Source of the DNA: an uncultured Gammaproteobacteria bacterium
GTDB lineage: Bacteria > Patescibacteriota > Patescibacteriia > Magasanikbacterales > 2-02-FULL-50-9b
NCBI GenBank assembly: GCA_964623315.1
Contig: CAZUSU010000036.1
Coordinates: 1 to 40,909, forward strand
Direction of reading: 5' to 3'
DNA length: 40,909 nucleotides
Every line of letters begins with the position of its first letter. The stretch's first letter is position 1. Position numbers and translations under genes: made by a program. The notes beneath the pieces were generated by a model, which was given only the letters and a program-made list of their open reading frames with translations, did no database searches and had not been told where the DNA came from. This document shows, one piece after another, positions 3,117-37,699 of the stretch.

Positions 3117-4109
3117 ATGGCATCACGTGTAGCAATTAATGGGTTCGGTCGCATTGGTCGTCAGGCGTTTAAGGCGGGGTTTGCTAGAAAGGCAATCAAT
3201 TTTGTCGCAATTAATGATTTGGCGAGCGCCGAGCAGTTGGCATATTTATTAGAATACGATTCCGTGTACGGGCGGTGGCCGCATAAAATTGCGGCGCGCG
3301 GCGGCCTGCTCATAGTGGATGGCAAAAAAATTCCGGTACTCGCAGAAAAAGATCCGGCCGCTCTGCCGTGGAAAAAATTATCCGTTGATGTGGTGGTTGA
3401 ATCTACGGGACGATTCACGGATTCAGCAGGATTGCAAAAACATATTACGGCCGGCGCGCGCGCCGTTATTTTATCTGCGCCGGCAAAAGGCGGCAACGTG
3501 CCAACAGTGGTGCGCGGCGTGAATGATCAAAAATTAGGTCGCCTCAAAATAATTAACAACGCCAGTTGCACCACCAACTGTGTGGCGCCGGTAACCGCCG
3601 TGATACACGAAAATTTTGGCGTGGTTAAAGCCGGCATGACCACCATTCATTCATACACCGCAGATCAAGCACTTGTTGATGGCCCGCACAAAGATTTTCG
3701 GCGCGGTCGTAGCGCCGCACTTAATATGGTGCCCACATCAACCGGCGCCGCGCGCGCCGTTACGGAAACAATCACAGAATTGCGCGGCAAGTTTGATGGG
3801 TGCGCCATTCGCGTGCCGACGCCCTGTGGCTCGCTTTCAGACATCACCTTTGTGACGCGCAAAAAAACTTCTGTTGCACAGGTCAACGCCGCACTGCGCG
3901 CGGCCGCAAAACAAAAACGGTGGAAAGGAATTGTCACCTGTTCTGAAGGCGGCCTTGTTTCGCAGGACATCATCGGCAACACGGCAAGCGCCATTGTTGA
4001 TCTTCAATTCACGCAAGTCATTGACGGCGACCTCGTGAAAATTTTAGCGTGGTATGACAATGAATGGGGGTATGCGCATCGGCTCATGGAAATGGTGGAG
4101 CTGATGTGA
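3117..4109 (+). CDS. gap: Type I glyceraldehyde-3-phosphate dehydrogenase
   Basis: NAD-binding INGFGRIGR, catalytic SCTTNC motif, C-terminal WYDNEWGY. Confidence 0.95.
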   Translation: MASRVAINGFGRIGRQAFKAGFARKAINFVAINDLASAEQLAYLLEYDSVYGRWPHKIAARGGLLIVDGKKIPVLAEKDPAALPWKKLSVDVVVESTGRFTDSAGLQKHITAGARAVILSAPAKGGNVPTVVRGVNDQKLGRLKIINNASCTTNCVAPVTAVIHENFGVVKAGMTTIHSYTADQALVDGPHKDFRRGRSAALNMVPTSTGAARAVTETITELRGKFDGCAIRVPTPCGSLSDITFVTRKKTSVAQVNAALRAAAKQKRWKGIVTCSEGGLVSQDIIGNTASAIVDLQFTQVIDGDLVKILAWYDNEWGYAHRLMEMVELM

Positions 4110-4180
4110 TTATGAATTGTTTGAACGCCCCCACAAAGGTAGTTGACTATTTGTCACTTACCTGATACGCTTTGCTACTT

Positions 4181-5443
4181 ATGACCCCACAACCCAATTC
4201 CACCTTTAACGGCCTTGGCATTGCGCCACGCATGTTAGAAGTGCTCACGCGAGCACAATATACTACGCCAACGCCCATTCAGGCGCAATCCATTCCTGTT
4301 TCCATTACGGGCAAGGATATTGTGGGTATTGCGCAAACCGGAACGGGCAAGACACTGGCGTTTGCCGTGCCGCTCGTGCAACGCATTGTGGCGGCCGGTG
4401 GCGGCCGCGCGCTTATTGTGGTGCCGACGCGCGAGTTGGCGTTGCAAGTAGAAGAAACGATTCAGCGCATTGCGCGTCCGTTCAACATGCGTTCTACGGT
4501 GTTGATTGGTGGCATGTCCATGGGCGGGCAAATTCAACAACTTCGTCGCAACCCCAGTATTATTGTGGCAACACCGGGTCGTCTGCTTGATCATCTTCAG
4601 CAAAAAACCGTGCACCTCCATGACGTACATGCGTTGGTTTTGGACGAAGCTGACCGTATGTTTGATATGGGCTTCATGCCGGCGATCACCAAAATTTTGC
4701 AGGCGCTTCCCAAAGAACGGCAGACCATGTTATTTTCCGCCACCATGCCGCCGGAAATTATGCGGCTCGCCGGCGCACATATGAAAATGCCGGTACGGGT
4801 GGAAGTTGCTCTTGCCGGCACGGCCGCAGAGCGCGTGATGCAGGAAATTATTTTTGTCTCAAAAGAACAGAAAGGCGCACTGCTCACCAAAGTATTAGGT
4901 GAAACGCGCGGCACGGTTTTGGTTTTTTCCCGCACCAAACACGGCGCACGAAAAATTACACGTGCCGTTTCTGCCGCCGGCCACGCGGCCGCAGAAATTC
5001 ATTCGGATCGTACTCTTGCACAACGCCGCCGTGCGCTGGACGGATTTAAAAATGGAACGTATCGCGTGTTGGTTGCCACCGACATCGCGGCGCGTGGTAT
5101 TGATGTCAAAGGCATTGAGCTGGTGTTGAATTATGATTTGCCGGACGCCGCCGAAGATTACGTCCATCGCATTGGTCGCACCGGCCGTGCGGGGCACGAA
5201 GGACACGCCATCTCTTTTGCCACACCGGACCAACGCCGCGATATTGTTTCCATTGAACGGCTCATTCGCAAACAAATTCCGGTTAAGCAGGTAGGTGGTA
5301 TGAGCGCGGCGCCATCGGTTGAGCGGGCGCCGCAATCGCAACGTCGGCCATTTGGCCCGCGTCCCCAACGACCGCGCGGACATTTTGGCAGTCCATCGCG
5401 CGCACCATTCCGTGGATCACGCACCAAACGAACTATCATGTAG
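4181..5443 (+). CDS. DEAD-box ATP-dependent RNA helicase with R/P-rich C-terminal tail
   Basis: Q motif (TPTPIQ), motif I AQTGTGKT, DEAD, SAT and HRIGRTGRAG. ATG at 4181 is preferred over the TTG at 4172. A possible TTGACT-N17-TACGCT promoter at 4143-4171 would make the mRNA nearly leaderless. Confidence 0.9.
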   Translation: MTPQPNSTFNGLGIAPRMLEVLTRAQYTTPTPIQAQSIPVSITGKDIVGIAQTGTGKTLAFAVPLVQRIVAAGGGRALIVVPTRELALQVEETIQRIARPFNMRSTVLIGGMSMGGQIQQLRRNPSIIVATPGRLLDHLQQKTVHLHDVHALVLDEADRMFDMGFMPAITKILQALPKERQTMLFSATMPPEIMRLAGAHMKMPVRVEVALAGTAAERVMQEIIFVSKEQKGALLTKVLGETRGTVLVFSRTKHGARKITRAVSAAGHAAAEIHSDRTLAQRRRALDGFKNGTYRVLVATDIAARGIDVKGIELVLNYDLPDAAEDYVHRIGRTGRAGHEGHAISFATPDQRRDIVSIERLIRKQIPVKQVGGMSAAPSVERAPQSQRRPFGPRPQRPRGHFGSPSRAPFRGSRTKRTIM

Positions 5444-15830: not shown

Positions 15831-15883
15831 CACCCTCTCCTTGAACCACGAATCTCGTGACAAGGGGAGGGTGCTTTTTTATT
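15831..15883. terminator. Bidirectional intrinsic terminator between the small gene and tgt
   Basis: CACCCTCTCCTT ... AAGGGGAGGGTG stem followed by TTTTTTATTT. It overlaps the tgt stop region. Confidence 0.65.
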
Positions 15884-17030
15884 TCGTCGCCCCCCACTCC
15901 TCCTGAATATTTTTAAAATTTCCCGTCGCAATTGCCGCACGCATTTCTTCGCACAACTTTAACATGAAGCGCACGTTGTGAATTGAAGCCAAACGATACG
16001 CAAGCATCTCTTCGCATTTAAACAAATGGTGCACATACGCGCGCGTGTGGTGCGTGCAGGTGAAGCAATCGCACCACGCGTCAATGGGCGCCGCGTTTGT
16101 TGCGTGCTCTGCGTTGCGAATGTTGATTTTTAAATCCGGCGCGGCGCGGCAGTACAGCGTGCCGTTGCGCGCCACACGCGTGGGCGCGACGCAATCAAAC
16201 ATATCAATGCCGCGTGCAACAACGGTAAACAGGTCGCGCGGATTATACCCCACACCCATGGCGTAACGCGGGCGATCGTCGGGGAGCGCGTCGGCAAGCC
16301 AATCAAGAATTTCGGCCGTTGCCGCCATGTTGTATCCAATAGATTCTCCGCCAACGGCAATGCCATCAAACGGCAGTGAAGAAATAAATTGCGCACTTTC
16401 GCGTCGTAGTTCGCGATGGTTCGCCCCTTGAACGATGCCGAACAAAAATTGTGTCCAATCATGCGGGCCCTTTTTTTGCTGTGCATCAATACACCGTCGC
16501 GCCCACGCGTGCGTGGTTTCCATTGCCGCGCGTGCTGAGGCATACGTGGCGCTGTCCGGCGTGCAAATATCAAATGCCATGATGATATCTGCGCCCAATT
16601 TATGCTGAATATCAACGGCAATTTCCGGAGTGAACCGATGTGAAGAACCGTCCAGATGTGACCGGAACGAAACGCCGTCTGCGTCAATTTTGACATGATT
16701 CGCATGGGCGCCATCTTTTTCTTCACGTTGCGCACCGAGCGAAAAAACCTGAAAGCCGCCACTGTCCGTTAAAAGCGGCCGGTCATAATTCATAAAACGA
16801 TGCACGCCTCCGAGTTTTGCAATCGTGTCCTCGCCCGGCCGTAAATGTAAATGATAGGTATTTGCCAAAATAACAGACGCGCCTGTGGCGCGAATATCGT
16901 CGTTGTCCAACGTCTTTACCGTTGCCTGTGTGCCGACCGGCATAAACGTTGGCGTCAAAATATCACCGTGGTCGGTGTGGATAATGCCGGTACGTGCGGC
17001 GCCCTCTTGTGCGATTTTTTTCCAAAACAT
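15879..17030 (-). CDS. tgt: tRNA-guanine transglycosylase (queuine tRNA-ribosyltransferase)
   Basis: TPTFMPVGT, LLTDSGGFQVFSL and the zinc site CDCFTCTHHTRAYVHHL. Confidence 0.93.
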   Translation of the reverse strand: MFWKKIAQEGAARTGIIHTDHGDILTPTFMPVGTQATVKTLDNDDIRATGASVILANTYHLHLRPGEDTIAKLGGVHRFMNYDRPLLTDSGGFQVFSLGAQREEKDGAHANHVKIDADGVSFRSHLDGSSHRFTPEIAVDIQHKLGADIIMAFDICTPDSATYASARAAMETTHAWARRCIDAQQKKGPHDWTQFLFGIVQGANHRELRRESAQFISSLPFDGIAVGGESIGYNMAATAEILDWLADALPDDRPRYAMGVGYNPRDLFTVVARGIDMFDCVAPTRVARNGTLYCRAAPDLKINIRNAEHATNAAPIDAWCDCFTCTHHTRAYVHHLFKCEEMLAYRLASIHNVRFMLKLCEEMRAAIATGNFKNIQEEWGATK

Positions 17031-17087
17031 GCGGCCAGTGTGACGGTTTTTTTACATTCTGTCAATGGCGTGCTAGTGTGTTTACAC

Positions 17088-17840
17088 ATGAAAAATAAAT
17101 TTGTCATCACTGTTATCTTCCTCTTGGCCGCCACTGCCATCGGCGGTGCCTTTTGGGGTGGCAGTCGCGTAGCGGCATGGCGCGTGGCGCGCGTAAAAAC
17201 AGAGCAGGCCGTGCAGGCCCAGCAGGAAGTTGCCGCCGTTGTCGTTGTCGCGACGAGCACTACCGCAGAGTCGTTCAACTTAGACGTGCCGTTTATTCCG
17301 CAAGCGCCGCGCAAAAATTGGGACGCGGACCACGAAGAATATTGCGAGGAGGCATCCTTGCTTACGGTGTACGCGTATAAACACAAAAAATCATGGACGA
17401 TTGACGAACAGGAAACGGAATTGGCGCGTATGCGCGATTGGCAAAAGCAAACGTTCGGCTATTTTGAAAGCGTGACGGTAAATGAAGTCGTACGTATCGC
17501 GCGCGAGTATTTAAAATTTGAACGAGTTCGTGTGATTGAAAATCCAACCTACGAACAGTTGCGCGCAGAACTGTCAGCCGGCCGTCCGGTTATTGTTCCG
17601 GCAAACGGCCGCGCGCTCGGCAATCCGTTTTATAGCGGGCTCGGGCCACCGTATCACATGCTGGTCCTGCGCGGCATCACGCCAAATGGCGATTTTATCA
17701 CCAACGACCCCGGAACCAAGCGCGGGGAAAATTACGTATATAAACGCGCCGTCTTAATGAACGCCATTCACGACTATCGTTATGGGCCGCGGGAAAAAAA
17801 GGTGGCAGACGATACGCCACGCGCTATTATTATAGAATAG
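17088..17840 (+). CDS. Secreted peptidase C39-like (Peptidase_C39_2 / YvpB-like) protein
   Basis: The ORF-track start at 16851 overlaps tgt. ATG at 17088 gives the signal/TM MKNKFVITVIFLLAATAIGG. Then VPFIPQAPRKNWDADHEEYCEEASLL (Cys) and PPYHMLVLRG (His), typical of C39-like domains. Confidence 0.6.
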   Translation: MKNKFVITVIFLLAATAIGGAFWGGSRVAAWRVARVKTEQAVQAQQEVAAVVVVATSTTAESFNLDVPFIPQAPRKNWDADHEEYCEEASLLTVYAYKHKKSWTIDEQETELARMRDWQKQTFGYFESVTVNEVVRIAREYLKFERVRVIENPTYEQLRAELSAGRPVIVPANGRALGNPFYSGLGPPYHMLVLRGITPNGDFITNDPGTKRGENYVYKRAVLMNAIHDYRYGPREKKVADDTPRAIIIE

Positions 17841-20859: not shown

Positions 20860-22251
20860 ATGTCAGCTGTCCGTAAACAGGGGGGGATGGGTCGGAGTGG
20901 TTTTTTGTCATTTTTGCGTCATCCTGACGCGGCGCAGTGGATTGCTGGGGGTGATGCGCAGGCCGCAAATTTGGATGACGTTGTTCGCATGACTCTGGAA
21001 CGCATGTACGCACAGGCACGGCAAATTCATCGTGTGGGTCAAACGGGCGCTCGCGCGGGGATCGTTCTGCTCATTCGTACGCAACTGACGCGTGATGAAC
21101 AGCGCGCGCTCGGTAATGACGGAGAGCTCTATCTTGAGATGGTGGCGGCTCTTGCAGATTGCCACCACATTCTTGATGAGCTTGCCAAGTACGTGCCGGA
21201 CAATCTGCGTCAGTTGTGGTCTTCGGACGGCATTGCTAAAAATTGGTGCACGCCGGAAGAGGTGTTGGTCGGCATGTTCTTTCCGAATTGGGATGGGGGA
21301 CAGCGCCGTAGTGGTCCGTTGCAGGGCGGGTTGGACGGATTGCGTTCGTGGATCGCTATGCGCGCATGGTTTTTTGCGTGCAACTGGATGGTGCAGAGGC
21401 ATCTGTTGGTAACGGGTGCGCGCAAGATGAGGGCGTTTACGACGGCGCTGGAACACGGTGGTTTTTTTGAGCCCGTTGTAGATTCGCGCATTCAGAATCT
21501 CACGTTTTTTGTGGATCCGAAACGCGGTTTTTTGTGGACGAGTGAAGAAACCGGAGTGAGCGTGACGCTGGCTCTTTCGCATCGCACCATCAAGGTCAAG
21601 GATCGGCTTGTGCGTGTTTGGTACACGGCGCGGGTCAAAGAGCTTGCCGCGTTGTGGGGTCGCGCGCATCGGCGCGGTTCGGTTCATGATCATATTGCCG
21701 CAACGCTGATGTTTGAAAGCCATAAGGACTATGTGGATGCGGTACCGATCATCAACGGCATTCTGCGTCGCAAAAAGCAGATCGTGTCCGTGAAGGTCGT
21801 GGACGAAGGTCGCGTGGGAGGGCGGGTCAATCCGGCAAGCGCCGGATATCGCGGCGTGTTCTGGAGCGGTGTCATCAAGGTGGCCGGTGTGACAGTTGAG
21901 CTTGAATGTGCGCATCTGCCACGGTATCTTGACGGTGTTTGCTCGCTGACGCTGTTTAACCACCGCGCGTATGAGGTGCGCCGGTTGCTGGTTAGTACGG
22001 CTGTAGAGGGATCATCTCTGTGGCAGTTACTTTTTCCGGGGAAGTACTACCATGAGATGGACGCCGCAATGGCCATTCGCATGATTCGTCGCCAGCTCAT
22101 GATCGTTGCGACTGATTTGCAATGGCGCACCGGAAAGAACCTGCCGACGGCCGCATTCAGGGAGGTGGCGAAGCTGTGCGCAGTGCTCGAAGAGCATCCG
22201 GAGGCGATTCTTGAACCTAGCAGGTTCAGCACAGTACTGCACATTCCATAA
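20860..22251 (+). CDS. Hypothetical 463-aa protein, GC-rich. The C-terminal half has a RelA/SpoT-like (RSH nucleotidyltransferase) motif order with non-canonical residues
   Basis: Strong SD (AGGAGGAG) 4 nt before the ATG. Hand-counted sample lines are about 57-63% GC, against about 45% in a gpmI line. Residues 258-375 read ARVKELAALWGRAHRRG / VHDHIAATLMF / GYRGVFWSG / VTVELECAH / NHRAYEVRR. These parallel the RSH synthetase motifs RxKxxxSxxxKxxR / DxxGxR / GYRSxH / EIQIRT / HxxYK, aligned by eye only. Confidence 0.6.
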   Translation: MSAVRKQGGMGRSGFLSFLRHPDAAQWIAGGDAQAANLDDVVRMTLERMYAQARQIHRVGQTGARAGIVLLIRTQLTRDEQRALGNDGELYLEMVAALADCHHILDELAKYVPDNLRQLWSSDGIAKNWCTPEEVLVGMFFPNWDGGQRRSGPLQGGLDGLRSWIAMRAWFFACNWMVQRHLLVTGARKMRAFTTALEHGGFFEPVVDSRIQNLTFFVDPKRGFLWTSEETGVSVTLALSHRTIKVKDRLVRVWYTARVKELAALWGRAHRRGSVHDHIAATLMFESHKDYVDAVPIINGILRRKKQIVSVKVVDEGRVGGRVNPASAGYRGVFWSGVIKVAGVTVELECAHLPRYLDGVCSLTLFNHRAYEVRRLLVSTAVEGSSLWQLLFPGKYYHEMDAAMAIRMIRRQLMIVATDLQWRTGKNLPTAAFREVAKLCAVLEEHPEAILEPSRFSTVLHIP

Positions 22252-22268
22252 TTCCGAACCAAACCAGT

Positions 22269-22314
22269 CCGCGCTACCCCTTGAACCTGAAGGTGGTGGC
22301 GCGGCCGTTTTTTT
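22269..22314 (+). terminator. Intrinsic terminator after the 463-aa ORF
   Basis: CCGCGCTACC at 22269-22278 pairs with GGTGGCGCGG at 22295-22304. It is followed by CCG and T7 at 22308-22314. Confidence 0.6.
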
Positions 22315-22368
22315 GTTACACTGCTCGGGCGAGTGATGCGACGAAGTCGCCGTGAGTCACGGCGCGCG

Positions 22369-22661
22369 TCGGTATTTGAGTCGGACTATAGCGCAGTTGG
22401 TAGCGCGCATGCATGGGGGCTCGTGCGAAGCGAGAAGCCAACAGTTTGGCTTCGAGCCGCGCGAGCGAGCGAGTGATGCGATGTGAATCGCCACGAGCTC
22501 CGGTTTTGAGTTGTCTGTGTGGTCGGGGTATAGCTCAGTTGGCTAGAGCGCTTGCATGGGGTGCAAGAGGTCGTCGGTTCAAGTCCGGTTACCCCGACCA
22601 CATAGACAACGAGAAAATGAGGTCGCGGGTTCAAGTCCCGCTAGTCCGACTCAAATACCGA
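22369..22661 (+). other. Split tRNA-Pro-like gene: 5' half and 3' half separated by ~195 nt and closed by a perfect 21-bp helix
   Basis: The 5' half at 22382-22419 reads CGGACUA UA GCGC AGUUGGUA GCGC G CAUGC AUGGGGG. The 3' half at 22617-22649 reads AUG AGGUC GCGGG UUCAAGU CCCGC UAGUCCG A. The pair C1:G72 and discriminator A73 match the Pro identity set. The acceptor pairing continues into the flanks: 22368-22388 is the exact reverse complement of 22642-22662. Only 3 of 5 anticodon-stem pairs can form across the insertion. Confidence 0.55.
22524..22600 (+). tRNA. tRNA-Pro (anticodon GGG), CCA encoded
   Basis: Hand-folded cloverleaf: CGGGGUA UA GCUC AGUUGGCUA GAGC G CUUGC AU-GGG-GU GCAAG AGGUC GUCGG UUCAAGU CCGGU UACCCCG A CCA. 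It has C1:G72, A73, U33 and G37. The T stem has two G-U pairs. Confidence 0.85.
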
Positions 22662-22667
22662 CAAGAG

Positions 22668-22684
22668 AAGAGGTCGTCGGTTCA
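22668..22684 (+). repeat. 17-nt direct repeat of the tRNA-Pro variable-loop/T-arm segment
   Basis: AAGAGGTCGTCGGTTCA at 22668-22684 is identical to 22565-22581 inside tRNA-Pro. It is followed by AGCCCCCAT at 22688-22696, the reverse complement of ATGGGGGCT at 22413-22421 in the split tRNA anticodon loop. Confidence 0.7.
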
Positions 22685-22731
22685 GCCAGCCCCCATTGAT
22701 TTATTCTCCGTAATGACGTACGCTGGATAAA

Positions 22732-23871
22732 ATGTTTATGCGAATCACGTACGTCTCTAACGCGCGCATGCCCACGGAGCGCGCGCACGGCATACAAATC
22801 ATGCACATGTGTGCGGCGCTCGCCGCCGAGGGGGCGGCCGTCACACTGCTCATGCCACGGCGTCACAATAAAATTCATGACGATGTTTTCGTATATTACG
22901 ATCTGCCGGAGACATTCCGCGTCGTGTATGTGCCGTGCATAGATTTATTGTGGTTGCGTTGGGCGGAATCGTTTTTTTATTTTGTTGAACTGTTTACATT
23001 TTTATTTTTTGCTCGGTGGTATCTGTTGAGACATGATGCTGACGCTATTTTTTCGCGGGAACTTTTTTTATCACTATTTACGCGGCGAGTGGTGTATGAA
23101 GCGCACACCGTACCTCCACAGCCAAGCCGGATTGAACGATGGTTGTTACAGCGCACACAGCTTATCATTGCTATTTCACACGGGTTGGCGAGCGATCTTA
23201 TGGCGCACGGCGTGCCCACAAAAAAAATTACGGTACTGCCGGATGGCGTGTCCATAAAACAATTTGCGCGTCCGCCAGATTTTGATCGCGCCGCGGTACG
23301 GGAGCGGTTATTCGGCGCGCATAAAAATCGCACCGTTATTGTGTACGCCGGCAGTTATTTTTTACATCCGTGGAAAGGCGTTAACACCTTGCTGGACGCC
23401 GCAGAAAAATTGGACGAAAATTTTATTTTTTATCTGGTTGGTGGCTGTCCCGAAGAAATTGAAGAGGGCGGGCAGATTTTACGCGCGCGAAGTATTAAAA
23501 ATGTTGTGCTGGTGCCGCGTATTATTCACACTGCCGTGGCCGAATATGTTCAAGCGGCTGATATGGTTGCCCTGCCGAACAGCGGTGCATTTCAGATATC
23601 CGCTCGGCACACGTCACCATTAAAACTTTTTGAATATATGGCGGCCGGTACGCCAATTATTGCACCTGATTTACCCTCCACACGTGAAATTCTTTCCGAA
23701 CAAACGGCGGTGATGGTGATCCCTGATAATGCCACGGCATGGGCCGACGCGTTTCGGCAGGGTGCATTACATGCGCAAGGACTTTCACCACGAGCAACGT
23801 CAGCGCGTACTGCCGTTGACGCCTACGATTGGCGCGTGCGCGCGGGCACGCTATTAAAGCTCATTGCTTGA
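22732..23871 (+). CDS. Glycosyltransferase family 4 (GT-B fold)
   Basis: N-terminal MRITYVSNARMPTERAHGIQ and C-terminal SPLKLFEYMAAGTPIIAP (E-x7-E-like region). Confidence 0.8.
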   Translation: MFMRITYVSNARMPTERAHGIQIMHMCAALAAEGAAVTLLMPRRHNKIHDDVFVYYDLPETFRVVYVPCIDLLWLRWAESFFYFVELFTFLFFARWYLLRHDADAIFSRELFLSLFTRRVVYEAHTVPPQPSRIERWLLQRTQLIIAISHGLASDLMAHGVPTKKITVLPDGVSIKQFARPPDFDRAAVRERLFGAHKNRTVIVYAGSYFLHPWKGVNTLLDAAEKLDENFIFYLVGGCPEEIEEGGQILRARSIKNVVLVPRIIHTAVAEYVQAADMVALPNSGAFQISARHTSPLKLFEYMAAGTPIIAPDLPSTREILSEQTAVMVIPDNATAWADAFRQGALHAQGLSPRATSARTAVDAYDWRVRAGTLLKLIA

Positions 23872-36652: not shown

Positions 36653-37699
36653 ATGCGACTGCTCATCATTACACAAAAAATTGATCGCGATGATACGGTG
36701 CTGGGGTTTATGCATCGTTGGGTTGAAGATTTTGCCGGCGCGTTTAAGCGTGTCAGTGTGTTGTGTTTGCAGAGCGGTCGCGTGGAGTTACCGCCAGAGG
36801 TGCCGGTATATTCTTTAGGTAAAGAGCGACAGCAAAATCGCCTTCGGTATCTCATAAATTTTTATCGCGTGATTATAGGTCAGACAAACACGTACGATGA
36901 AGTGTTTGTGCACATGAATCCGGAATATGTTTTATGGGGTTGGGCGTGGTGGCGCATGACCGGCAAGAAAATTGTGTTGTGGTATAACCATCCGGTGGGG
37001 TCGCTGTCCGCGCGCGTCGCACGCTGTTTGGTGGATCGGGTGGTGTGCACCTCGCCGTTTGCGTACGCCATGCGCTGGCAGGGGACGGAGCGTATGCCCG
37101 TTGGCGTTGATACGAATCAGTTTTCACCGCGCGGGCCGTATAAACGCAATCGCGTGGTGTACGTGGGCCGCCTGTCGCCGGTAAAAAAAATTGAACTGCT
37201 CATTGATGCGGCAAAAATTTTGCAGGATCGGGGGTGTGACGTGGCGATTCAGGTGTATGGTAATCCAACGGACGCAGACACGGCGTATGCCCGCGCCATA
37301 CAAGAACGTGCCGCGCCGCAGGTCGCGGCCGGAATCATTTCGTTTCATGCGGGTGTTTTGCATGATGCGTTGCCGGAAATTTTTTCTGCCGCACACGTTG
37401 TGGTGAATATGACGCCGACCGGCTCCTTTGATAAGACGATAATTGAAGCGATGGCGTGTGAGCGGCTCGTACTGGTGTCAAACCGCGCGCTTGCCGGCGT
37501 CATACCACCGGAATGCCTTTTTGAACAGAATAGTGCGCGTGCATTAGCCGACCAATTACAAATAATCCTCGGCTGGTCTGCCGAGGATAGTGATTGTGCA
37601 GGAAAAAAAATGCGCGCGTACGCCGTGCAGGACGAAAGTCTCTCTGAGCTTACCAAAAAGTTACACGACCTTTTTAGCAAGCTTCGCGAGCGTCTTTGA
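36653..37699 (+). CDS. Glycosyltransferase family 4 (GT-B fold)
   Basis: Starts on the base after the gmd stop. C-terminal SFDKTIIEAMACERLVLVS is the E-x7-E-like region. Confidence 0.7.
   Translation: MRLLIITQKIDRDDTVLGFMHRWVEDFAGAFKRVSVLCLQSGRVELPPEVPVYSLGKERQQNRLRYLINFYRVIIGQTNTYDEVFVHMNPEYVLWGWAWWRMTGKKIVLWYNHPVGSLSARVARCLVDRVVCTSPFAYAMRWQGTERMPVGVDTNQFSPRGPYKRNRVVYVGRLSPVKKIELLIDAAKILQDRGCDVAIQVYGNPTDADTAYARAIQERAAPQVAAGIISFHAGVLHDALPEIFSAAHVVVNMTPTGSFDKTIIEAMACERLVLVSNRALAGVIPPECLFEQNSARALADQLQIILGWSAEDSDCAGKKMRAYAVQDESLSELTKKLHDLFSKLRERL

Follow-up and report, generated by a model that had tools for sequence, protein, structure and literature searches.

A complete tRNA-Pro(GGG) gene nested between the two halves of a second, probably disrupted tRNA-Pro gene in a Magasanikbacterales contig

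The stretch of DNA analyzed here (the window) is contig CAZUSU010000036.1 of assembly GCA_964623315.1, a 40,909-nucleotide sequence from an uncultured bacterium that GTDB places in the Magasanikbacterales (Patescibacteriota). At one locus of this contig, a complete tRNA-Pro(GGG) gene, referred to here as the inner gene, lies between the two halves of a second tRNA-Pro(GGG) gene, referred to as the outer gene. From 5′ to 3′, the locus consists of a leader, the 5′ half of the outer gene (5′O), a hairpin, another leader, the 5′ and 3′ halves of the inner gene (5′I and 3′I), the 3′ half of the outer gene (3′O), and a further fragment of a 3′ half (3′I″) (Table 1). An earlier note on this DNA, made from its letters without database searches, had described two halves of a tRNA-Pro-type cloverleaf, a complete CCA-bearing tRNA-Pro(GGG) between them, and a perfect 21-bp helix closing the outer gene. 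All three are present exactly where the note placed them, and the position that it gave for the interruption also holds; the length of the interruption, given as about 195 nt, is in fact 197 nt (22420-22616).

The 5′ half of the outer gene (22382-22418/19) reads CGGACTA TA GCGC AGTTGGTA GCGC G CATGC ATGGGG(G), and its 3′ half reads ATG AGGTC GCGGG TTCAAGT CCCGC TAGTCCG A, with no CCA encoded. When the halves are joined and three bases are restored, the sequence is called as tRNA-Pro(GGG) by ARAGORN and is identical at 69 of 73 positions to a tRNA-Pro(GGG) that is uninterrupted in L004, the reference genome nearest to the window (labelled Candidatus Magasanikbacteria RIFCSPHIGHO2_02_FULL_50_9b, with an NDK 82% identical to that of the window). 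Positions 5 to 37 are identical (33/33) to the tRNA-Pro(GGG) genes of both L004 and a metagenomic contig, L112; we refer to this ancestral kind of gene as O-type, and to the kind represented by the inner gene as I-type. Where the ancestral sequence is GCATGGGG-TGC-ATGAGG, the window has GCATGGGG-G[CTCG...GAGAAA]-ATGAGG. The 3′ strand of the outer anticodon stem is incomplete because TGC of positions 38 to 40 is missing or replaced, a loss of about 3 nt. All of the stems that the outer gene retains consist of standard pairs, including a lineage-specific compensated change (G4:C69 to A4:T69) that is not seen in the relatives. The outer gene does not form an unbroken cloverleaf whose anticodon stem has 5 bp and whose anticodon loop has 7 nt, it is detected neither by Rfam nor by ARAGORN, and its anticodon region is unpaired in the predicted fold. 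In common with tRNA pseudogenes, it is homologous to a functional tRNA, is missing an essential part, and is accompanied by an intact gene of the same anticodon that starts 105 nt 3′ of the break. Judging from its sequence, the outer gene is most likely a pseudogene in two pieces that would give no normal decoding tRNA by any known route.

The inner gene is the sole ARAGORN call in the whole window and matches the Rfam tRNA family RF00005 with 61.3 bits (threshold, 29 bits), compared to 66.3 and 65.2 bits for the O-type genes of L004 and L112, respectively; it ends in A73-CCA. It differs from the O-type genes at 11 positions, and every difference located in a stem is compensated or leaves a wobble pair. 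The loops, including the anticodon and variable loops, are alike save for one D-loop and one T-loop base. In a four-sequence alignment, all 82 stem cells hold standard pairs and 7 pairs are altered on both sides, a result that none of 500 shuffles reached. The inner gene reads as a diverged paralogue of the outer gene. Because all of its stem differences are compensated, we presume that it is a working tRNA-Pro(GGG) gene, and the only one at the locus.

The acceptor stem of the outer gene continues into its flanks. A repeat search returned the two arms of this helix (22368-22388 and 22642-22662) as 100% complementary and 253 nt apart. Its 7 acceptor pairs are followed by 14 perfect extra pairs in exact register (chance expectation, about 4^-14), and in a self-BLAST against the 40.9-kb window the match has an E value of 3.6e-6. 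The inner tRNA has a 21-nt inverted repeat of its own (22510-22530 and 22590-22610), which is 95% complementary, includes one G:T, and is likewise made of 7 acceptor and 14 flank pairs. When the region is folded as RNA, the minimum-free-energy structure (−165.7 kcal/mol, z = −11.6) contains two concentric 21-bp helices. Among 53 other tRNAs that ARAGORN called in 165 related loci, pairing beyond the acceptor stem amounts to 0 to 2 bp, as opposed to 14 bp in the inner tRNA. From these comparisons, the helix extension appears to be peculiar to this lineage, in which both units carry it. The two extensions differ from each other at 8 of 14 positions in register (about one-third when gaps are allowed), and both are still paired. 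Selection on pairing, independent origins by template switching at the acceptor-stem palindrome, and chance similarity are possible causes of extensions that are paired yet different.

About two helical turns of double-stranded RNA is the size that RNase III cuts. Both helices supply the at least ~20 bp of double-stranded RNA from flanking sequence that characterizes an RNase III stem (21 bp, perfect, in the outer helix; 21 bp, with one G:U, in the inner one). The stem is not conserved among the relatives: L004, L112, and L003/L085 are without it. By analogy with known processing stems, we suggest that the two 21-bp helices are probably precursor-processing stems. In rRNA precursors, a leader-trailer double strand of about two turns presents the RNA to RNase III (PMC10250234), and another study describes inhibition of bacterial RNase P by pairing of the leader with the 3′ RCCA (PMC9433436). 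By this published biochemistry, the 14-bp extension should keep RNase P from acting for as long as the helix is neither cut nor opened.

Table 1. Features of the tRNA-Pro locus, in order of position in the window
Feature	Position	Strand	Content or remark	Detected by
Terminator-like hairpin and T-run	22295-22315	+	Ends the 463-aa gene; left limit of the tRNA locus	
Leader L1 of the outer unit	22320-22367	+	13-mer GCGAGTGATGCGA (22329-22341); hairpin GCGAC-GAA-GTCGC (22338-22350)	
Outer helix extension, 5′ strand	22368-22381	+	14 bp, GTCGGTATTTGAGT	Inverted repeat
Outer (ancestral, O-type) tRNA-Pro(GGG), positions 1-37/38	22382-22419	+	Acceptor 5′ strand, D-arm, anticodon-stem 5′ strand, loop ATGGGG(G)	
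Spacer hairpin S	22420-22465	+	First part of the insert; −32.6 kcal/mol, z = −4.57 (folded as 22419-22466)	Fold, inverted repeat
Leader L2 of the inner unit	22466-22509	+	13-mer GCGAGTGATGCGA (22469-22481); hairpin GCGAT-GTGA-ATCGC (22478-22491)	
Inner helix extension, 5′ strand	22510-22523	+	14 bp, GTTGTCTGTGTGGT; pairs with A73-CCA and 10 trailer bases	
Inner (I-type) intact tRNA-Pro(GGG)	22524-22600	+	CCA encoded	ARAGORN, Rfam RF00005
Inner helix extension, 3′ strand	22597-22610	+	ACCACATAGACAAC; overlaps A73-CCA	
Linker	22611-22616	+	GAGAAA; end of the insert	
Outer tRNA-Pro, positions 41-73	22617-22649	+	Last 3 nt of the anticodon stem, variable loop, T-arm, acceptor 3′ strand, A73	
Outer helix extension, 3′ strand	22649-22662	+	ACTCAAATACCGAC	Inverted repeat
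Third, decayed 3′-half fragment	22668-22697	+		Direct repeat

Several parts of the locus are repeated. The 5′ units recur at about 140 nt, and the small hairpins of their leaders, L1 and L2, are one compensated pair apart. The 3′ halves form three head-to-tail units (inner gene, outer gene, and third fragment) with spacings of 52 and 51 nt. The first 17 bases of the third fragment (22668-22684) are identical to positions 41 to 57 of the inner tRNA (17/17), with divergence from the T-loop onward. Tandem Repeats Finder returned nothing on the locus because the copies are too diverged.

Relatives of the locus were sought in GTDB genomes, JGI metagenomes, and a protein database, using the 463-aa gene 5′ of the tRNAs, the glycosyltransferase gene 3′ of them, and NDK as anchors. 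By the NDK-anchored searches, the organism falls among the candidate phyla radiation (CPR)/Patescibacteria, in the Peregrinibacteria/Peribacteria type. In the comparison with related genomes that the earlier note had recommended, L004 and L112 were found to carry ordinary, uninterrupted tRNA-Pro(GGG) genes that have no helix extension. In L004, the order is uvrD, a cupredoxin-like gene, ndk, the tRNA-Pro(GGG) gene 30 nt after ndk, and a glycosyltransferase gene, and the tRNA has neither an encoded CCA nor leader-trailer pairing. L112 carries the same O-type tRNA in plain form. Across the NDK-anchored scans of GTDB and JGI, a syntenic tRNA-Pro was found in L004 only and a further O-type gene in L112 only. 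By its sequence and synteny, the outer gene can be identified as the ancestral resident of the locus, the syntenic orthologue of the L004 tRNA-Pro(GGG) gene.

Four additional contigs reach into the locus from its two sides. In L002 and L003, the O-type 5′ half lies directly 3′ of the 463-aa gene, and both contigs end inside the tRNA. L084 and L085, which carry orthologous glycosyltransferase genes and come from the same two samples as L002 and L003, start inside the tRNA or just past its 3′ end. At the start of L085 is an O-type 3′ half, with an acceptor strand matching that of L003. L084 opens, at positions 1-66, with a GC-rich hairpin (CGGCCGA-cgatgg-TTCGGCCG) followed by CAAGTCCGGTTACCCCGA, which is 18/18 identical to the 3′ end of the inner tRNA, with the T-stem 5′ strand missing and the T-loop broken. 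This I-type fragment sits where L085 has its tRNA 3′ end. We conclude that the I-type tRNA, too, has long resided at this locus in at least one relative. In L084 it is the I-type copy that is damaged, a reciprocal decay of the kind expected for redundant duplicates.

Homology between the start of L084 and the spacer hairpin of the window was considered and dropped, since the alignment is not significant (245 of 1000 shuffles score as well). In both L002 (2680-2731, TTGCCT-17-TAAACT) and L003 (4025-4075, TTGCGA-16-TAGACT), a sigma-70-like promoter can be recognized by eye 5′ of the tRNA-Pro, and the leaders of the window have diverged from these promoter-bearing leaders. The O-type tRNA-Pro(GGG) is without an encoded CCA in 4/4 lineages (L004 3638-3710, L112 8549-8621, L085 1-28, window 22617-22652); CCA is encoded in 45 of 54 tRNAs of the related loci, and in the inner tRNA of the window.

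The locus also separates a conserved block of housekeeping genes from a variable sugar/glycosyltransferase cluster (window 22650-22740). In the two nearest relatives, the tRNA is followed by a convergent gene for a nitroreductase-methyltransferase fusion, and only then by the glycosyltransferase gene (L084 58-1299; L085 10-1269); the fusion gene has no tblastn match in the window. L004 has a different glycosyltransferase gene at that place (3711-4778), with a homologue in the window at 36653-37699.

Among the readings offered in the earlier note, a disrupted duplicate is best supported: the outer gene is the orthologue of a plain gene, it has lost about 3 nt, and an intact paralogue lies inside it. 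We lean toward the view that a redundant duplicate of tRNA-Pro(GGG) was disrupted by a local duplicative rearrangement, leaving a dead outer gene and a working inner paralogue. The resident outer gene would have been broken between positions 37 and 41 by the 197-nt block, which comprises the hairpin, the leader, the inner gene with its flanks, and the linker. A local duplicative rearrangement is proposed because of the order 5′O-5′I-3′I-3′O-3′I″ and its head-to-tail repeats at 52/51 nt and at about 140 nt. The event would have been replication slippage or template switching in a two-gene locus, followed by deletions, and not the arrival of a mobile element. Starting from a tandem O-I pair, the nested order could have arisen through one tandem duplication (3′O plus the insert) and two deletions or, alternatively, through serial template switching in one replication pass.

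The earlier note had regarded the 21-bp helix as unexpected for a dead pseudogene. This argument is weakened because the extension is a property of both gene units, the intact inner gene having the same kind of helix. The outer helix may predate a recent disruption, and we propose that it is perfect because it was part of an intact gene until recently. If the units are expressed, the 14-bp leader-trailer extension of each would form a double-stranded stem in the precursor, which an RNase III-type enzyme would have to cleave, or which would have to be opened, for RNase P to act.

Several observations weigh against a disrupted duplicate. No one simple event converts a tandem O-I pair to the nested order: a minimum of one duplication and two deletions is required, all of them ending at tRNA positions 37 to 41, which is not parsimonious, and the shared end points at these positions hint at a site-specific process. 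The 8 differences among 14 extension positions, with pairing kept, suggest selection or repeated correction of the palindrome and not mere recency. The O-type genes of relatives are without the extension, and its origin in both units of one lineage is left unexplained. Outside the break, the outer halves are entirely free of decay, and they have the compensated A4:T69 pair and the perfect 21-bp helix; selection on pairing would also yield such undecayed stems, the A4:T69 pair, and a perfect helix. A promoter scan found no sigma-70-type promoter for either unit. Finally, our searches found no sequence from a relative or an independent assembly that spans the junctions, and for this reason it is a guess when the disruption happened and in which order the events took place.

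The end points raise the question of whether the locus is instead the footprint of site-specific or cassette insertion, with a small tRNA-bearing unit (hairpin, leader, and tRNA between 14-bp inverted repeats) having entered the anticodon arm of the resident gene, or with the fragments being scars of integrase-type crossovers in the anticodon loop and the T-loop. All three 3′ fragments start at tRNA position 41, and the outer 5′ half stops at 37/38. The third fragment of the window breaks in the T-loop after position 57, and the I-type fragment of L084 starts in the T-loop at 56. Anticodon loops and T-loops are reportedly the preferred crossover sites of integrases that target tRNA genes. The placement of the locus at a conserved/variable border, with the extra nitroreductase-methyltransferase gene in relatives and the other glycosyltransferase in L004, would also fit an insertion, and in an archaeal analogue a tRNA 5′ fragment was left upstream of an intact copy by an element bearing a recombinase (PMC3293823). 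However, the genes of the 40.9-kb window are of housekeeping and sugar-cluster types only, and neither an integrase nor a transposase nor any other gene of a mobile element is among them. The insert lacks a target-site duplication, its terminal inverted repeat measures only 5 nt, and no part of it has a second copy in the window. The resemblance of the inner leader to the outer leader (13/13 plus flanks) argues for a local rather than a foreign origin. We consider site-specific insertion doubtful; because of the shared end points and the T-loop breaks, it is nonetheless the chief rival of a disrupted duplicate.

Two more specific forms of insertion were rejected. A phage or viral origin of the inner unit finds no support in IMG/VR, where the inner 3′ half has 0 exact matches, or in phage genomes, which give generic tRNA-Pro matches only. 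Models based on integrase attachment (att) sites as the main explanation predicted that hybrid tRNAs would be present or that an island would separate the repeats. Neither was observed; the 3′-part direct repeats lie head to tail with no island between them, and the window holds no integrase. As for miniature inverted-repeat transposable elements, the 21-bp inverted repeats include the acceptor stems, there is no target-site duplication, and the unit is present in a single copy in the 40.9-kb window.

Another explanation is that the locus encodes a functional nested precursor, a structured transcript of 295 nt whose outer pieces, once RNase P and 3′ processing have freed the inner tRNA, stay paired through the 21-bp helix and serve either as a scaffold for the processing or stability of that tRNA or as a two-piece, anticodon-less tRNA-like RNA that keeps the acceptor stem and the D- and T-arms. 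The predicted fold does keep the concentric 21-bp helices together with intact outer D- and T-arms, the outer halves have no substitutions at conserved tRNA positions and one compensated acceptor pair, and the extensions, which are absent from the 53 other related tRNAs, differ at 8/14 positions yet remain paired. On the other hand, the plain genes of L004 and L112 have no extensions, and L003/L085 show none. The base-paired outer halves, which the earlier note had read as a possible split tRNA, could not decode because the outer anticodon arm cannot form, no bacterial enzyme is known that joins or uses such halves, and no Rfam family is matched, including tRNA-like or Y-RNA-like families. The observations in favor of a nested precursor are, moreover, equally explained by the recent disruption of a gene that already bore the helix. 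We regard a functional nested precursor as unlikely, and judge it slightly less likely still that the arrangement is a maintained RNA design, that is, a concentric precursor whose outer halves are selected as a scaffold for the release or stability of the inner tRNA or for a tRNA-like role of their own.

Given that the window is a single metagenomic contig, the nested order could be unreal, the product of a chimeric join in assembly or amplification. Exact look-ups of the window proteins for another assembly across the locus yielded only two Logan contigs of a near-identical strain (run ERR3478687; 99.5% and 99.7% identity), of which L001 ends at 22415 and L166 starts at 22734. Because both stop at the edges of the locus, the junctions have no independent confirmation. 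A literature search for the run accessions, aimed at the type of sample and at possible amplification of its DNA, found no paper. L001 does confirm the leader, the 5′ helix strand, and the outer 5′ half (identical over 214 nt, window 22202-22415). It ends exactly 30 nt past A4, the sole base that separates the 5′ half from the O-type tRNA of L004/L112, and this is the break expected at k = 31 with the tRNA-Pro of another species in the sample. Repeats shared by the tRNA units are 21 nt or shorter, and most are 17 nt or shorter, which is too short for de Bruijn mis-joins at usual k. In addition, a mis-join would not make the flanks perfectly complementary over 14 extra bases. An artefact is, in our judgment, quite unlikely.

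The intron-like insertion suggested in the earlier note is not supported. A true intron in the anticodon arm, self-splicing or removed by an enzyme and merely happening to contain a tRNA, is suggested by the position of the break in the anticodon loop/stem and by its 197 nt, which resemble those of bacterial group I introns in tRNA genes (bioRxiv 10.1101/2020.01.27.920355), and ARAGORN accepts the artificial join 22421|22617 as a 74-nt tRNA-Pro(GGG). This join is the best one, and its stem, CATGC/CTATG, has 4/5 pairs and a mismatch at C31:C39; neither the ancestral GCATG strand nor a canonical anticodon arm results from any join. The insert has no Rfam match to group I, group II, or any other intron family even at E ≤ 10, nor to a second tRNA, and a brute-force scan in both geometries found no bulge-helix-bulge motif at the junctions. 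A complete tRNA and its helix take up about 40% of the insert, and what is left, ~105 nt 5′ of the tRNA and 16 nt 3′ of it, is too little for a ribozyme core. ARAGORN in intron mode, one of the checks that the note had proposed, reported the inner tRNA only and not the outer gene. We consider such an intron extremely improbable. The annotated genes of the 40.9-kb window, the part of the genome covered here, include no splicing endonuclease (EndA) or RNA ligase. Permutation does not apply, as the 5′ half of the outer gene (22382) precedes its 3′ half (22617).

The window itself is an ordinary chromosomal stretch. Its genes encode, among others, a peptide release factor, ribosomal protein S2, EF-Ts, glycolytic enzymes, QueA, Tgt, UvrD, and NDK. 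The tRNA locus lies 3′ of ndk, between an orphan gene of 463 aa and the sugar/glycosyltransferase cluster. The orphan gene (20860-22251, + strand) has no Pfam match, and among 5.8 billion proteins only 2 homologues were found (55-56% identity), both in Logan assemblies (L002 and L003). It is missing from L004, where the tRNA directly follows ndk, and it is overlapped by an antisense open reading frame (ORF) of 351 aa (20908-21963) that is probably spurious. The L003 homologue has an in-frame TAG at 3742-3744 (FPS*YY) at the place of a Lys codon in the window (FPGKYY), and tblastx similarity goes on for at least ~25 codons beyond it; this TAG may be a nonsense mutation, a sequencing error, or the mark of a pseudogene.

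Scans of GTDB genomes and JGI metagenomes anchored on the 463-aa gene found no orthologous locus, an exact look-up of 8 local ORFs over the locus found none of them in the collection, and a concatenated six-frame query of the locus gave no match at E ≤ 1. Among the downstream partners sought through the glycosyltransferase gene, P0006 is not syntenic. Elsewhere in the window, the longest ORF of a C39-like peptidase overlaps the start of tgt on the opposite strand by ~180 nt (16851-17840, +; 15879-17030, −); the true start of the peptidase is probably an internal Met ahead of a hydrophobic segment (MKNKFVITVIFLL...).

If the locus is indeed a disrupted duplicate, it would offer a snapshot of a bacterial tRNA gene that is fragmenting at the anticodon arm while a paralogue takes over. 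It would then be of use as a bacterial case to set beside models for the origin of split and intron-containing tRNAs in archaea, and as a warning for the annotation of tRNAs in CPR genomes. Should other tRNAs of this genome share the helix design, they would point to an RNase III-dependent route of tRNA maturation in a reduced CPR genome. Should relatives keep the nested order with covariation, the locus would be the first bacterial split-like tRNA arrangement. A maintained design, if true, would mean that bacteria have an equivalent of split or disrupted tRNA genes, one that works without the archaeal splicing machinery.

The earlier note knew of no bacterial precedent for a tRNA nested in a tRNA, and our literature searches found none either; on present sequences, the nested arrangement appears in one lineage only. 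Group I introns are known from the anticodon loops of bacterial tRNA genes, such as tRNA-Leu(UAA) in cyanobacteria and tRNA-Ile in Azoarcus. The locus shares with these genes the anticodon-loop location and a length of about 200 nt, but no group I catalytic core is detected in it, its insert is a hairpin, a leader, and a complete tRNA, and its exons rebuild no canonical anticodon arm. The split and intron-containing tRNAs of archaea (Nanoarchaeum, the tri-split tRNAs of Caldivirga, and bulge-helix-bulge introns) likewise have half-genes with complementary flanks and a break on the 3′ side of the anticodon loop. In contrast to them, the locus belongs to a bacterium and has no bulge-helix-bulge motif, its flanks extend the acceptor end and not the side of the break, 3 nt of the anticodon stem are missing, and the halves lie 197 nt apart on one strand instead of at separate loci.

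Three further systems resemble the locus in part. As in the permuted tRNAs of Cyanidioschyzon merolae (PMC3978253), the arrangement of the halves departs from that of the mature molecule and the precursor is rich in structure; unlike in those tRNAs, the order is 5′ then 3′ and there is no sign of circularization. The leader-trailer helices of rRNA precursors (PMC10250234) are also long, near-perfect helices made from sequence that flanks a stable RNA, whereas the helix described here encloses a single tRNA, continues an acceptor stem, is absent from related genomes, and has predicted cleavage only. The tRNA-Thr 5′ fragment of Caldiarchaeum subterraneum (PMC3293823) is, similarly, a partial copy beside an intact gene of the same anticodon, with a break in a loop and at a variable border. 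It differs in that no recombinase accompanies our locus, 197 nt lie between the halves, and both halves are kept, nested and with perfect 21-bp pairing. Fragments of tRNA genes beside intact paralogues were already known from tRNA loci prone to recombination, and what is new here is the nested order together with the paired 21-bp helices.

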